The notes beneath the pieces are model-generated. The model saw only the letters and a program-made list of their open reading frames with translations, was not told the DNA's origin and ran no database searches. Both the position numbers and the translations under genes were made by a program. DNA of 64,000 nucleotides from a virus: positions 14,820-78,819 of IMG/VR virus record IMGVR_UViG_3300044684_000224. One strand, given 5' to 3'. Numbering within the stretch: position 1 is the first letter of the stretch; each line of letters opens with the position of its first letter. Below are positions 2,070 to 63,891 of the stretch, piece after piece.

Positions 2070-2259
2070 TGGCCGCGATGATGCGTTCCCGCCAGTACGG
2101 CAACCCGTGCCGGGTCGAGGGCCACGGCTCTCGGTGCGAGGTCTCGCACGAGCGTCCCCTTGTCCACCGGGCATGGGAGAAGCGCGCGTGGCGCACAGCG
2201 GAGTTGGGACGTGGCACTACGGGCCAAGCGCGGACAGCGAACCGTTGGAGCGTGGGCTG

Positions 2260-2451
2260 ATGTTCCGGCCCGGAGGACACAACCCCCACACCGTCTACTG
2301 GGACGACGAGGGGTCCGATCCGAACCGGTTCGTCGCGGTGGCCATGACACCGACGGCGGCGGTGCGGATCGCTGATGCCCTGAACCGGGCGGGCGTCGAA
2401 GGGGACTGGATTGACGCGCTGCCGCCAATTCCGAAAAGGGGGACAGCATGA
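2260..2451 (+). CDS. Hypothetical protein
   Basis: TGATG start; ATGA overlap with the endolysin start. Confidence 0.5.
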   Translation: MFRPGGHNPHTVYWDDEGSDPNRFVAVAMTPTAAVRIADALNRAGVEGDWIDALPPIPKRGTA

Positions 2452-3308
2452 GGACTCTCTACGATTCGACCAACTGGTCCGCCATCCCGACCACGGCGCA
2501 GATGGTCGCCGGCTACGTCCCTCCGTCCGGATTCGCCTGGCCCCAGTCCGCATGGAACCGGTTCCCGAACAGCATCCATGTCCGGATCACCCCGCAGGTG
2601 TCCACCACTGGTGTGGGTGTGCAGGTGCTGGACGTGGAGCAGGGCGACGCCACCCCGGCACAGGCGCCCGGCTGGGTGATCACCCAACGTCGGCTGGGCC
2701 AGGCCCCGACGGTCTACTGCTCGGCCGCACTGTGGCCCACCGTGCAACGGGCGTTCACCGCGGCCGGTGTGCCGCACCCCTGCTACTGGATCGCCGCCTA
2801 CCCCGGCGGCGGCCCGACGCTGCCCACCCTGAACGGCATCACCGCCGTGGCCCACCAGTACGCCGACCCGACCACTTCGGGCGGCGACTACGACCTGTCC
2901 GTCGTGGCCGACTTCTGGCCCGGCGTCGACCAAGGAGGAAACATGACGACCCCAGTCCAGATCGACCTCAACCAGCCGCTGCCGGACCCGGCGTCCGTGG
3001 CTGGCACCGGCACCGTCGGCGAGGCACTCACCGTGATGCTCGGCGGCATCGCCGGCAAACGCAACGCCGGCGCCGGCGCGGTCGAGGAAGCCCAGATTGA
3101 CGCCGACCTGCACAACGTCCTCGCCGCCGTGGCTGGCGCCGACTCCGACGTCAAGGCCGGCATCGCCCAGGTGGCCTCTGCCATCGCCGCACTCCCGGCC
3201 GGACAGCCACCGACCGATGCCCAGATGCAGGCCCTCACCGCCGCGGTCACCAAGGCACTGCCCGGCTACACCGTCAACATCACCCCAACCGCCGGGAGCA
3301 CCTCATGA
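2448..3308 (+). CDS. Putative endolysin (GH25/DUF1906-like glycoside hydrolase)
   Basis: LYDS, LDVEQGDATP, PTVYCS, YWIAAY, AHQY and YDLSVV motifs of GH25-like barrels; precedes a holin-like gene. Confidence 0.65.
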   Translation: MRTLYDSTNWSAIPTTAQMVAGYVPPSGFAWPQSAWNRFPNSIHVRITPQVSTTGVGVQVLDVEQGDATPAQAPGWVITQRRLGQAPTVYCSAALWPTVQRAFTAAGVPHPCYWIAAYPGGGPTLPTLNGITAVAHQYADPTTSGGDYDLSVVADFWPGVDQGGNMTTPVQIDLNQPLPDPASVAGTGTVGEALTVMLGGIAGKRNAGAGAVEEAQIDADLHNVLAAVAGADSDVKAGIAQVASAIAALPAGQPPTDAQMQALTAAVTKALPGYTVNITPTAGSTS

Positions 3309-3496
3309 GCCGCTACGCCAAGGCCATCGCCGCACTGCTCGGCGGGCTCACCCGGGCCGTGGTGATCGGCATCCTCGCCCTGGTCCACGTGCACATCGAC
3401 CCGACACTGGCGGCCGGGATCTGCACCGTGCTCGCCACCCTGGCCACGATCATCGCCCCGGCGAACAAGACGGCCGCCAAGCCACCGGCTGCCTGA
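3305..3496 (+). CDS. Holin-like small membrane protein
   Basis: 63 aa, two hydrophobic helices, YAKAIAALLGG N-terminus, basic tail, ATGA-coupled to the lysin. Confidence 0.65.
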   Translation: MSRYAKAIAALLGGLTRAVVIGILALVHVHIDPTLAAGICTVLATLATIIAPANKTAAKPPAA

Positions 3497-3506
3497 TCCC
3501 TGAACG

Positions 3507-3545
3507 CTGCCCGGCCGGTCGCCGTGGGGACGACTGGCCGGGCAG
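3507..3545 (+). terminator. Stem-loop after the holin
   Basis: CTGCCCGGCCGGTCG / CGACTGGCCGGGCAG, 14 of 15 positions paired. Confidence 0.5.
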
Positions 3546-3581
3546 TACCCCGAGATTCCCCACATCCCCACAGGAGAAGGC

Positions 3582-4238
3582 ATGTCCAACATCCAACTGT
3601 TCAGCAACGACGAGTTCGAGTTGTCCGTCGAGTACATCGACGACACGTTCCGCGCGTACGGTCCACATCTGGCACGCCAACTGGCGTTTCGGGACGCGTA
3701 CGACCTCGTCCGCAACCTGGAGTCTGACGAAAAGACGCAGGTCGAGACGCACCGGACTGGTCCGGTGCCTGTTGACCAGCAGATATGGTGGCTGACCGAG
3801 CCGGGATTCTTCCGCGTGATCTCGCAGCGCCAAGTGGCTCGCATCAAGGACAGCGAGACCCGCGACAGAGTGCGCCGCTTCCAGCGGTGGGTGTTCCACG
3901 AGGTGCTGCCGTCGATCCGGCGTCACGGTGCCTACGTCATCACCGAGCCGGCATCGCTCACCTGGGAGCAGACCGCGCAGCGCTTGTACCAGATGTACGG
4001 CCTGCCGCTGTGTGCCGCGCAGATTACCGGCACGCTCAAGTCCGCCGGGGTACTGCGCCAGAACGGGAACCCGTGCGTGAAGTACCGAGACTGGTTCTGG
4101 ATGACCGGCACCGGAACGGTGAACGTGCTCGACTTTGTGCTGCCGAAGATCGCGGCCAAGCTGACGGAGACGCGTTCGAAGATGCTGGAACGCCAGCAGT
4201 GGTACCAGCTCCGGCTACAACTCGATCCGTCACCCTGA
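3582..4238 (+). CDS. BRO-N family antirepressor-like protein
   Basis: LTEPGFFRVI and RFQRWVFHEVLPSIRRHGAY, the Bro-N signature; GGAGAAGG RBS. Confidence 0.85.
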   Translation: MSNIQLFSNDEFELSVEYIDDTFRAYGPHLARQLAFRDAYDLVRNLESDEKTQVETHRTGPVPVDQQIWWLTEPGFFRVISQRQVARIKDSETRDRVRRFQRWVFHEVLPSIRRHGAYVITEPASLTWEQTAQRLYQMYGLPLCAAQITGTLKSAGVLRQNGNPCVKYRDWFWMTGTGTVNVLDFVLPKIAAKLTETRSKMLERQQWYQLRLQLDPSP

Positions 4239-14586: not shown

Positions 14587-14991
14587 CTATCCGGTTCGCC
14601 GGCGCCGGAACGCGCGCTGTTCGTTGATCCAGTCCACGGCGTCGTTGAGGCGTTTCAGGGCCTCGTTCCGGCCGTGTTTGTCTTCCCAGAACTTGTAGAC
14701 ATCCATCAGTTCCCGCTGTTCCTCTGTGAGCGGCGGGGGCTGTTCTCGTTCCAGTGGCAGTGGGTCGCCGCCGGCAAGGACAGACTCGAACGAGCCGGGC
14801 CCTAGGCCGATCACCGGCTCCATCTGCGCGGCCTTGTGCGCCTGCGGCAGTCGTGTGCCGTCTTCGACGCCGGTCCAGGTGCCGCGGTCGACGCCCGCCT
14901 GCGCGGCCGCCGACCGGATGCTTAGTCCTCGCCGTGTGCGTTCTCGGCGCACTATCTCGGCGAGCCGTGCCCTGTGTCCCCCGACTGGCAT
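14587..14991 (-). CDS. Immunity repressor (CI-like XRE HTH)
   Basis: RERTRRGLSIRSAAAQAGVDRGTWTGVEDG; divergent from a Cro-like gene and near the integrase. Confidence 0.85.
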   Translation of the reverse strand: MPVGGHRARLAEIVRRERTRRGLSIRSAAAQAGVDRGTWTGVEDGTRLPQAHKAAQMEPVIGLGPGSFESVLAGGDPLPLEREQPPPLTEEQRELMDVYKFWEDKHGRNEALKRLNDAVDWINEQRAFRRRRTG

Positions 14992-61839: not shown

Positions 61840-62415
61840 TCACTGGCGTTGCTCCAGCGGGCCGGACGAGTCGACGGCGAGCAGTCCTTCGAGGCGAGCA
61901 ACCTTGCGGTTCAGTTCCTCCACCGAGACGTTGTGCTCGACAAGCTTCCGACCCTGCACCTTGAGTCGCCCCTCGGTGATTGCCTGCGCCTGTTCCAGTG
62001 AGGTGATCCGTTGGTCGTGCTGCCGAAGTTGCCGGGAGTGCGCGTCCAGCCTGATCGTCTGCTGCTCGTGCTGGGCGAGTTCCAGCACGCTCAGATCCTC
62101 GACGCGCGTGCCGCGCAGCGTCTCCAGCCCTCGCCGGACCTGCCGGCCGGCGCGCTTCCGTCGATTGCGCGCCTGGTCGGCATGCTCACGTGCGGCAGCT
62201 ATGCGGTAGCCGACGCCGCGCACGTTCACCGCAGTGCGACGGTCGCGATCCTGAAGTAGCCGGATGGCGTCATACAGGGCCGCTCGACTCGCCACCAGGT
62301 CAACGCCGCTGGCCTCGTCCAGTTCCGCGAGGGTGAACACCTGGTCGACTCCACCGGTACGCAGCACGTTGTAGATCAGTTCACGCTGCGACAGTTCCGC
62401 CTTGGTCTCGAACAT
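61840..62415 (-). CDS. Winged-helix plus coiled-coil protein, coupled to the RAMP gene
   Basis: 191 aa MFETKAELSQ..; FTLAEL..helix..VNVRGVGYRI wing; heptad C-terminus; TGATG overlap at 62413-62417. Confidence 0.75.
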   Translation of the reverse strand: MFETKAELSQRELIYNVLRTGGVDQVFTLAELDEASGVDLVASRAALYDAIRLLQDRDRRTAVNVRGVGYRIAAAREHADQARNRRKRAGRQVRRGLETLRGTRVEDLSVLELAQHEQQTIRLDAHSRQLRQHDQRITSLEQAQAITEGRLKVQGRKLVEHNVSVEELNRKVARLEGLLAVDSSGPLEQRQ

Positions 62416-63023
62416 CAGTCGACCACCTTGAAGGTCGAGACCTGGAAGCGCCCGTAGCGGAGACGGAAGTCGCCGAGTCCGGCGATGGCGCCAGCGCGGT
62501 CCACGATGGTCTGGAATTTGTCGATGTCCAGCACGGTGTCGTCCACCTGCCACAGGGAGGTCAGTGCCCATTTGTGGAGCTTCGGACGGCAGCGCATGAT
62601 CTTCACTCGCTGCTGCCCGGTCGGCCGGTAGTCGACATACGGCGAGCCTTCGAGCCCAGCACCCCAGAGTTTGTCGAGGGTACGCGGCCCCTCGTAGATC
62701 AGGGGGAGTTTGCCGTCTTCGGACGCGTCGGTCAGTCCGTCGCGGATGTAGCCGCCGTCCGATGTTTTCTTCGCCGCCGCGTGGATGGACGCCCACATCA
62801 TCTGCGCCGGCAGGTATGGGCCGTAGACCTGGTCCCAATACCAGGACATCTCCCATTCCAGCCACGCAATGCGGAGCAGAACCTCCTCGGTCTTGTCCTT
62901 CCCGCGCTTGCGGGCGAGAGAGGTCTTCTCTTTGTTGCTGGGGTCGAACGGGTTTACCAGGCGTTCGGCGTTGTGGATGAGCAGTGGACGGGTGCCACTG
63001 ATGCCGATCTCGATGGTTTTCAT
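62415..63023 (-). CDS. Stand-alone RAMP/Cas7-like RNA-binding protein (VIPR-like effector)
   Basis: N-terminal strand IEIGISGTRPLLIHN, GPYLPAQMMWASI, RCRPKL..W and C-terminal Gly-loop AGAIAGLGDFRLRYGRFQV, characteristic of RAMPs; AAGGGAG RBS; no other cas genes nearby. Confidence 0.72.
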   Translation of the reverse strand: MKTIEIGISGTRPLLIHNAERLVNPFDPSNKEKTSLARKRGKDKTEEVLLRIAWLEWEMSWYWDQVYGPYLPAQMMWASIHAAAKKTSDGGYIRDGLTDASEDGKLPLIYEGPRTLDKLWGAGLEGSPYVDYRPTGQQRVKIMRCRPKLHKWALTSLWQVDDTVLDIDKFQTIVDRAGAIAGLGDFRLRYGRFQVSTFKVVD

Positions 63024-63093
63024 GCAGGACTCCCTTGTGTTCGAGCGGTCCTATTGCCAAGTGAGGCGCGCTGCCTCGTGGCGTTTACCGCTC

Positions 63094-63370
63094 CTGTGCG
63101 CGCCAAGGACTCGAACCCTGGTGTCTGCCCGTCACGCTCCGTCCCTACCTCACCTCGCCTGGCCACACCGCACCTCGCCGGACCCAGCCCAACCCAGCCC
63201 CACTGTGTGCGCCGGGGCCTCGAACCCCGGTGACTGCCAGTCGCACTCCGTTGCCAAACCTTGCCCTGCCACACCCAACGCAGCCGTACCGAACCACGCC
63301 GCACCGGACCCCACTCAGCCTCACCTCATCGCACCCAGCCATGCCACACGGTGCCAAACACAGCCCTACC
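63094..63370 (-). ncRNA. GGY-NN pentamer guide-like RNA array: two units, each a pentamer tract plus a 48-nt structured tail
   Basis: Tract A 63251-63370: 24 pentamers, 19 exact GGY and all 24 with Y at position 3. Tail A 63203-63250. Tract B 63145-63199: 11 of 11 GGY. Tail B 63094-63141. Tails are 39/48 identical. Confidence 0.85.
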
Positions 63371-63377
63371 AAAGAGA

Positions 63378-63401
63378 GCGTCCAGGACCAGCGTCCAGGA
63401 C
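63378..63401. repeat. 11-bp direct repeat GCGTCCAGGAC x2 upstream of the pentamer array
   Basis: 63378-63388 and 63391-63401. Confidence 0.75.
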
Positions 63402-63540: not shown

Positions 63541-63891
63541 TCAGTCCCACAGTGCCCAGAAGTGCTCGACGAACAGCTTCAGCGCCTCGTCTATCGCTGC
63601 TCGTTCCGCCTTCTCCCGTTCGATCGCCTGCGAGTAGGTCTCACCCTCGACGTGGCGGTTGAGGTCAACCTTGAGTGGGTCGACGATGCGGGTGAGGGTG
63701 TCCCGCCATTCCTCCTCGGTCATGCTTGGGTCGTAACCCATGCCGTGGTCTCGGAGGTGTTCCACCGTCCCAGCGATCACCGAGGCCAGGTAGCAGTGGA
63801 GTTCCCACACATCCCGCTCCGACCAGCCGCGCCGTGCACGCTGGATGCGCCACTTCATCGTCCGCAGCGGCTTCGTGAATCGGGGCATCAT
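63541..63891 (-). CDS. Conserved phage hypothetical protein
   Basis: RRGWSERDVWELHCYLA..W..L..I..EALKLFVEHFWALWD. Confidence 0.7.
   Translation of the reverse strand: MMPRFTKPLRTMKWRIQRARRGWSERDVWELHCYLASVIAGTVEHLRDHGMGYDPSMTEEEWRDTLTRIVDPLKVDLNRHVEGETYSQAIEREKAERAAIDEALKLFVEHFWALWD

Follow-up and report, generated by a model that had tools for sequence, protein, structure and literature searches.

A predicted VIPR locus with tRNA-like guide tails in an uncultivated soil actinophage

Introduction

What kind of system is encoded by a small reverse-oriented island of phage DNA in which two tracts of repeated pentamers, each followed by a structured tail, precede the gene of a lone Cas7-like protein? 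The island occupies positions 61,840 to 63,401 of a stretch of 64,000 nucleotides (the window, positions 14,820 to 78,819 of the IMG/VR virus record IMGVR_UViG_3300044684_000224). The source is an uncultivated soil actinophage, with a virus record of 93,360 bp and 66% GC. A preliminary description of the island had presented it as a candidate novel RNA-guided system, adding that it might be one of the recently described phage VIPR (Viral Interference Programmable Repeat) systems.

The link to VIPR was right and the claim of novelty has to be withdrawn, since VIPR was published in 2026 preprints. There it is composed of a Vipr protein and of vrRNAs, which are made of alternating GGY and NN and carry a conserved 3′ tail; it is usually accompanied by one vap gene and is mostly phage-borne (bioRxiv 10.64898/2026.04.26.720920). 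Its structures (bioRxiv 10.64898/2026.04.26.720927) and its biology in vivo (bioRxiv 10.64898/2026.10.15.759431) have been reported separately. The island follows the logic set out in the first two of these preprints, and its Cas7-like protein is a homologue of Vipr. We estimate at about 0.9 the probability that the locus is a complete VIPR system of vipr plus vap1 architecture, carried as a reverse-oriented island by an actinophage. The locus is apparently intact and well supported as such, and it is not a new RNA-guided system, its kind being already in print. The new point is another one, which is worth pursuing: the tail of the guides is tRNA-like and has stand-alone relatives in other phages.

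Results

Homology and predicted structure of Vipr and Vap

The 202-amino-acid protein of the island was compared by phmmer with the sequences of the PDB, where it matched over residues 1–196 chain D of entry 36pp, named 'SUSP1 Vipr protein', with an E-value of 3.8e-14. In tblastn searches the protein matched 130 phage records, SUSP2 among them, with 28% identity to the orthologous SUSP2 gene (E 2e-14). It also matched phrog_4652 (2e-36), and 1,862 representatives of 50%-identity clusters match Vipr at E ≤ 1e-3. The branch that holds the window Vipr is sparsely sampled: its nearest relative is 57% identical and the second nearest 43%.

The AlphaFold2 (AF2) model of Vipr, built with 13 homologues, reached a predicted local distance difference test score (pLDDT) of 93. 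It displays an RRM beta-alpha-beta core, a helical bundle, a thumb hairpin (residues 130–149) and a G-loop (residues 182–192, containing GLGDFRLRYG). The comparison with Cas7 and Csm3 that had been proposed as a check of the fold was run with Foldseek against the PDB: the top 50 matches were all Cas7-family RAMPs, the best being Csm3, Cmr4 and type VII Cas7, with E-values of about 1e-4 and a TM score of about 0.5. In the pairwise alignment with the SUSP protein, H17, R40, M75, K85 and G90 fall on SUSP H17, R39, M72, K82 and G87, and R146, D185, F186 and R187 fall on SUSP R138, D177, W178 and R179. Considering the residues that hold G1, G2 and Y3 and those that clamp the DNA, seven of eight are conserved or conservatively replaced.

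Concerning the 191-amino-acid protein, ten other loci encode a homologue immediately next to vipr. A profile built from six of these homologues, aligned by hhalign with the SUSP2 gene located downstream of vipr, gave a probability of 96.8% (E 2.4e-10); the SUSP2 gene so matched occupies the vap1 position, and a GxGYR wing motif is common to both. The AF2 model contains a winged helix (helices 10–20, 29–36 and 44–58, hairpin 61–73) followed by two C-terminal helices (75–101 and 110–183) that form a coiled coil of roughly 110 residues. With this model, Foldseek returned only winged-helix DNA-binding proteins, with weak E-values. Judged from these comparisons, the 191-amino-acid protein is a Vap1 homologue, and the locus displays the vipr plus vap1, or type II-like, architecture. 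Pfam holds no family for either Vipr or Vap.

Organization of the locus

The features of the island and the open reading frame (ORF) upstream of it are the following, with the evidence for each in brackets.

63377-63401, minus strand: tandem 13-bp unit, two copies, with palindromic core GTCCTGGAC (Tandem Repeats Finder, period 13, 100% match)
63251-63370, minus strand: repeat tract of vrRNA1, 24 pentamers (array calling)
63207-63246, minus strand: tail of vrRNA1, tRNA-like core (covariance model match 63200-63256, 69.6 bits)
63145-63199, minus strand: repeat tract of vrRNA2, 11 pentamers (array calling)
63098-63137, minus strand: tail of vrRNA2, tRNA-like core (covariance model match 63091-63147, 69.0 bits)
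63030-63036, minus strand: ribosome-binding site AAGGGAG, 6 nt before the ATG of vipr (read from the sequence)
62415-63023, minus strand: vipr, 202 amino acids, stand-alone Cas7-like RAMP, ATG at 63023 (PDB 36pp, phrog_4652, AF2, Foldseek)
61840-62415, minus strand: vap, Vap1-like, 191 amino acids (hhalign against the SUSP2 gene, AF2 model)
63541-63891, minus strand: ORF of 116 amino acids, upstream of the tracts (weak match to phrog_11543)

Read along the minus strand, the 13-bp duplication is thus followed by tract 1 and its tail, tract 2 and its tail, the ribosome-binding site and the two ORFs. Both ORFs are intact, show the bias of GC at third codon positions and overlap from stop to start, the ATG of vap (62415) sharing 1 nt with the TGA of vipr. 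The flanking genes, up to 61816 on one side and from about 64433 on the other, lie on the plus strand, which makes the VIPR unit a reverse-oriented island. What the preliminary description had reported on the layout is borne out: a minus-strand unit opposed to the surrounding operon, two pentamer tracts with homologous structured tails, a ribosome-binding site and a RAMP-like gene with a C-terminal Gly-loop, and a coupled gene for a protein with a winged helix and a coiled coil. The statement that no cas genes belong to the unit agrees as well with the searches for Cas and defence families, which gave no PADLOC match for the three proteins of the island or for the 339-amino-acid ORF next to it, and no Pfam match for five plus-strand flanking ORFs. 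A CRISPR-associated orphan Cas7 was ruled out on the same grounds, there being no CRISPR array and no cas genes.

The 13-bp duplication is located directly 5′ of tract 1, and its 12-mer occurs exactly at these two places only in the window; this tandem element may be a promoter or operator. The ORF of 116 amino acids has no homologue in any other of the VIPR loci compared and is probably outside the VIPR system. ARAGORN found no tRNA genes in the window, and the region gave no Rfam match at E ≤ 1.

The pentamer tracts

Of the 24 in-register pentamers that make up tract 1, 19 conform to GGY-NN; the other 5 are degenerate at the first or second base. Tract 2 is GGY-NN in 11 of 11 units and is flanked 5′ by AGTGG and 3′ by GGACG. 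All 35 units of the two tracts, the degenerate ones included, have a pyrimidine at position 3, and NN takes 12 different values in tract 1 and 7 in tract 2. A vrRNA gene is defined by at least four tandem GGY-NN (YNNGG) units with hypervariable NN, and both tracts qualify. When a GGY-NN caller was run on both strands of the 93,360-bp record, these two arrays were the only ones found; the best stretch of 12 units contains 11 GGY, and 30 first-order Markov surrogates of the genome reached at most 5–6. The pentamer arrays are therefore far beyond chance. A coding or simple-repeat artefact was ruled out by the strict register, the constrained position 3 and the like pattern present in homologous loci. 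Folding of the whole region was no better than that of shuffled sequences (z 0.27), as is expected for tracts bound by protein.

The length of tract 1 is in the upper tail of the distribution, the median being 12 units among 99 arrays of the window and related loci. The pentamer AGTGG precedes both unit 13 of tract 1 (63311-63315) and unit 1 of tract 2 (63200-63204), and four of the five degenerate units are in the first half of tract 1. The shared pentamer and this clustering hint that tract 1 may be two 12-unit guides fused after the loss of a tail.

A side observation concerns the ends of the arrays. The in-phase triplet after the last GGY unit is GGR in 67 of the 99 arrays, and in 5 of 99 when the position one unit before the first is considered; in tract 2 this terminal GGR unit is the in-phase GGACG (63140-63144). 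Since the Y pocket of the published Vipr excludes purines (bioRxiv 10.64898/2026.04.26.720927), the GGR unit may, by analogy, mark the end of the filament.

Structure of the tail

In both tails of the window a 5-bp outer stem leads into an 11-nt linker that contains GG, and then into a 6-bp inner stem closed by a 7-nt TTCGAGN loop (TTCGAGG in vrRNA1). The differences between the two copies preserve the pairing, and every base pair is kept. In actinobacterial tails in general, an outer stem of 5–7 bp is followed by a linker of 10–11 nt with an invariant GG and by an inner stem of 6–7 bp, which is capped by a 7-nt TTCGANN loop with GG before it and CC after it. The sequence GG-TTCGANN-CC is the universal signature of the tRNA T-arm.

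The structure was predicted independently by RNAalifold, and in ten copies all of the 110 cells of the alignment are paired, with compensatory changes in 6 of 11 pairs. The covariance model built from these ten copies finds both window tails, the tail of mycobacteriophage LittleE and tails in ten further VIPR loci. When 140 distinct copies are considered, pairing extends to 99.8% of cells and covariation to 10 of 11 pairs (28–58% paired when the partners are slid), it being understood that this alignment was fitted to the model and that many copies were gathered by a pattern fixing GGCA and the T-loop, so that the independent evidence in it is that of the stems and of a conserved A-C after the outer stem.

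The linker of the tail reads ACYGGCA. The consensus of the tRNA D-loop includes A14, Y16, G18, G19 and A21, and in sequence the linker resembles a D-loop deprived of its stem, the module as a whole having the look of a tRNA elbow joined to an acceptor stem. A cloverleaf is not formed, as only the acceptor-like stem, the GG linker and the T-arm are present. From its sequence, the tail is tRNA-like and is not a tRNA. The many covarying copies and the lack of a cloverleaf ruled out both a genuine tRNA gene and an attP fragment. Two flavours of linker (…TGGCAG… and …GATGGTCG…) coexist and alternate within single arrays beside one vipr in Nonomuraea, Streptosporangium and Micromonosporaceae. Concerning the literature, the word 'tRNA' is absent from the main text and the supplementary legends of the discovery and satellite-competition VIPR preprints, and 'tRNA-like' from the language-model VIPR preprint; the cryo-EM preprint was not included in this search of terms.

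Stand-alone copies of the tail module

When the region was used as a blastn query, 64 Streptomyces phages matched over the tail only, with 86–93% identity; the tail of vrRNA2 is 93% identical over 44 nt to these stand-alone copies. Streptomyces phages are absent from the organisms tallied in the tblastn search with Vipr. The covariance model found seven copies in Streptomyces phage Sujidade and eight in Joe, all of them on the early-gene strand of the right arm, within the following regions.

Sujidade, NC_021304.1, 45042-50334, early-gene strand: stand-alone modules (covariance model)
Joe, KX815338.1, 43050-47685, early-gene strand: stand-alone modules (covariance model)

The seven solo copies that were checked against the annotation start 0–25 nt after a stop codon and end 27–44 nt before the next start. 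In IMG/VR, a scan for the motif gave at least 120 stretches carrying the module. Among the matches listed (80 loci, 165 occurrences), 151 occurrences have no upstream tract and 9 have one; Vipr is encoded in 6 of 6 loci with tract-linked copies and in 1 of 72 loci with solo copies only. The stand-alone module is absent from Rfam 15, and no RNA runs were found for a region of Streptomyces phage DNA rich in solo modules.

Streptomyces phages carry the module with neither tracts nor Vipr, which suggests that a host factor, and not Vipr, reads it.

Relatives of the locus

Arrays of GGY-NN adjoin vipr in every relative examined, contigs of Logan included; the preliminary description had made its reading depend on the presence of such tracts beside homologues. 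The relative with 57% identity, on a contig of 76.5 kb, carries about 17 arrays on both sides of vipr, and a relative with 50% identity carries 3–4. In mycobacteriophage LittleE (NC_042322.1), a cultivated temperate phage, gp34 and gp33 are Vipr and Vap, accompanied by five arrays and annotated only as hypothetical proteins; the locus (2175-3946 of the retrieved stretch) separates the tape-measure gene from the tail genes and is oriented opposite to them. In Gordonia phage Trine (NC_047991.1), gp41 is a Vipr homologue with adjoining arrays. Relatives with arrays were also found in genomes or metagenome-assembled genomes of, among others, Nonomuraea, Streptosporangium, Micromonosporaceae and Mycobacteriales.

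Two further observations concern these relatives. Downstream of Trine gp41, the coding sequence of the 'hypothetical protein' gp40 (3085-3888 of the retrieved stretch) is covered by arrays (3128-3187 and 3252-3286, same coordinates) and tRNA-like tails, and is probably a false gene call made on a vrRNA array. In the loci of Nonomuraea, Streptosporangium and Micromonosporaceae the order is vipr, long vrRNA array and vap, and some of the tracts have 27–30 units.

Search for targets of the guides

Decoding of the guides followed the published rule: successive NN pairs are read with a single skipped base between them. In the phage's own 93-kb genome, the best matches reached 27 of 48 informative positions for guide 1 and 19 of 26 for guide 2; they are within the null of shuffled guides and below the published target threshold of 80% NN identity. 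This lack of a match is in line with the absence of self-targeting reported for VIPR.

Exact scans of IMG/VR found no target with all 11 units of guide 2 or with units 13–24 of guide 1, nor any with four 9-unit sub-patterns; the same engine does cope with patterns that contain N, having found the stretches counted above with that of the tail motif. Two scans of JGI metagenomes with exact patterns were also negative. With up to 3 mismatches allowed, the complete genomes of Sujidade, Joe, LittleE and Trine and five VIPR-carrying actinobacterial genomes gave no target, and neither did 401 Mycobacteriales genomes with up to 2, the retrieved homologous loci, or all phage records when compared with a degenerate 24-amino-acid peptide reading of guide 1. 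In the opposite direction, 57 guides of relatives gave no convincing match to this phage, the best being 18 of 24 with a guide of low complexity. The target negative is a weak one: the searches were exact or near-exact and cover little of the diversity of soil actinophages.

Discussion

How the system would work

The way of action of the locus can be proposed by analogy with the VIPR systems of SUSP1 and of a Pseudomonas fulva prophage; homology is the basis for attributing to it expression, RNA binding, DNA silencing and a non-cutting mode. One Vipr protomer would bind each pentamer, and the protomers would form a helical filament in which the G-loop, the thumb and helix 1 hold the flipped-out GGY bases. 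The displayed NN pairs would then base-pair with double-stranded DNA, leaving out one target base in every three, and the bound complex would silence the transcription of a competing mobile element without cutting it, with Vap1 enhancing the silencing. The preliminary description had supposed that each RAMP subunit grips a constant GGY and displays the variable NN. This stands in the published VIPR logic, except that each GGY is shared by two adjacent protomers; the stoichiometry of one subunit per pentamer, also predicted there, is that of the published structure.

In the actinophage, tracts, vipr and vap would be transcribed as one unit from upstream of 63371, and the island may be expressed independently of the surrounding plus-strand operon. 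Host tRNA-processing enzymes, namely RNase P and/or RNase Z-type enzymes, would read the tails and free the single vrRNAs and the vipr-vap mRNA. That these enzymes cut at tail modules has, in our judgement, close to an even chance of being true. A wider proposal is offered tentatively, as one that falls somewhat short of even odds: the module of about 40 nt would be an undescribed actinophage RNA family, a Vipr-independent mimic of the tRNA elbow read by host RNase P or Z, with which the arrays would be natural tRNA-guide arrays. In dozens of Streptomyces phages lacking Vipr, host cutting at the modules would punctuate early polycistronic operons. A bolder version of the proposal has the stand-alone copies also titrating the Vipr of rival phages.

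Several observations have to be set against these interpretations. The stack of acceptor and T-stem has 11 bp, as compared with 12 bp in tRNA, and the tail goes unrecognised by both ARAGORN and the Rfam tRNA model; with the tRNA models silent and the stack one pair short, processing by RNase P or Z is plausible at most. The consensus scan of the region called no sigma-70-like promoter. Tract 1 is unusually long, with its five degenerate units, and part of it may be decaying. The sequencing runs that hold DNA of the locus are soil and rhizosphere DNA metagenomes only, none of them RNA. No natural target of either guide was found in the searches described above. In the protein, SUSP K33 is aligned with T34, with lysines nearby at 31 and 33; the alanine mutant of SUSP1 K33 lost silencing.

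Alternative interpretations

The role of the tail admits another explanation, in which it would be a handle or 3′ cap specific for Vipr, equivalent to the pseudoknot of SUSP1 and nucleating or terminating the filament, and the solo copies would be RNA decoys against VIPR. Solitary-repeat RNA anti-CRISPRs provide an analogue of such decoys. In SUSP1 the shared consensus tail makes a solo vrRNA competent for forming the Vipr complex, and the pseudoknot caps the filament; besides, the tail-only copies are numerous and, being on the early-gene strand, would be made early in infection. A handle read by Vipr fits badly, on the other hand, with two linker flavours in single arrays beside one vipr, all the more as the flavours do not track the phylogeny of Vipr and the 57%-identical relative uses the other flavour. 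The parts of the module that do not vary, the T-loop and the GG of the linker, are those needed by a tRNA elbow, and the fixed intercistronic position of the solo copies looks like mRNA punctuation. It seems reasonable to regard the handle and decoy explanation as rather unlikely.

Two other alternatives concern the system itself, and both are improbable. The locus could be a decaying or idle remnant of VIPR, with intact genes, guides that match nothing and no current function; this would agree with the lack of a target in any collection searched, with the 5 degenerate units out of 24 in tract 1 and with the presence of two guides only, compared to about 17 in the closest relative. Yet the intactness, codon bias and overlap of both ORFs, the retention of all GGY-contact residues, the perfect tract 2 (11 of 11) and the complete pairing of both tails argue against a remnant, and the miss in the target searches would be expected even for a working guide, because these were narrow, exact or near-exact searches. 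That the complex recognises RNA transcripts instead of double-stranded DNA appears improbable as well. The SUSP1 complex does pair with single-stranded RNA in vitro, and the nearest structural relatives, Csm3 and Cmr4, are backbones of RNA-targeting complexes; however, the SUSP1 filament mostly stalls on single-stranded RNA and forms no triplex with it, the published silencing worked on either DNA strand, the clamps of the non-target strand (SUSP K82 and R39) are conserved as K85 and R40, and the partner protein has a DNA-binding winged helix. The preferred interpretation is that of an apparently intact VIPR locus, predicted to be directed to double-stranded DNA, with tRNA-like tails.

Comparison with known systems

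The locus shares with the type II VIPR of Escherichia phage SUSP1 and of the P. fulva prophage a Vipr of about 200 amino acids with the same GGY-contact residues, GGY-NN guides with a 3′ tail, and a vipr-vap operon with a Vap1-like DNA-binding partner, all of it phage-borne, without cas genes and without self-target. It differs from them in a protein identity of about 29%, in belonging to an actinophage of 66% GC, in having both guides upstream of vipr, in a tract of 24 units as compared with a published range of 9–16, and in a tail that is a tRNA-like module of acceptor stem and T-arm, that of SUSP1 being a pseudoknot. With the Cas7 RAMPs of class 1 (Csm3, Cmr4 and type VII Cas7), Vipr has in common the RRM, thumb and G-loop, and polymerisation along a guide at a fixed period with flipped bases, although the Cas7 models of PADLOC and Pfam gave no match to it. 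Unlike them, it is accompanied at the window locus by no CRISPR array, no Cas5, Cas6, Cas8, Cas10 or Cas11 and no adaptation genes; the period of VIPR is 5 nt with three bases sequestered, whereas that of Cas7 is 6 nt with one base flipped.

Concerning the tail, the comparison is with the VIPR arrays of types I and V, either interspersed with hammerhead ribozymes or staggered, in which, as here, a structured element between tracts sets the ends of the vrRNAs. The element of the window would differ in not being self-cleaving: it mimics a tRNA, and any cleavage would have to come from host enzymes. Modules resembling tRNA are known from MALAT1 mascRNA, from the tRNA-like structures of plant viruses, from the tRNA-like domain of tmRNA (transfer-messenger RNA) and from engineered tRNA-gRNA (guide RNA) arrays. 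The tail is similar to them in the acceptor-like stem placed on a T-arm, in the universal GGTTCGANNCC loop and in a GG that makes an elbow possible, and, as they do, it sits where an RNA must be cut from a longer transcript. It is dissimilar in lacking a D stem, an anticodon arm and an encoded CCA, and in its 11-bp stack.

Conclusions

The description of VIPR dates from 2026, and the two systems studied are proteobacterial; the locus of the window and its relatives extend the same logic to actinophages of high GC. Isolated phages with laboratory hosts, LittleE and Trine, make these predictions tractable for testing, LittleE being a convenient model. If host tRNA enzymes cut the arrays, this would explain the maturation of multi-guide vrRNAs without a Cas6-like enzyme or a ribozyme. 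If the proposal on the stand-alone modules is true, Streptomyces phages would contain a new and abundant family of structured RNA located outside Rfam, and its architecture would lend itself to compact designs expressing several vrRNAs per transcript, in parallel to engineered tRNA-gRNA multiplexing.

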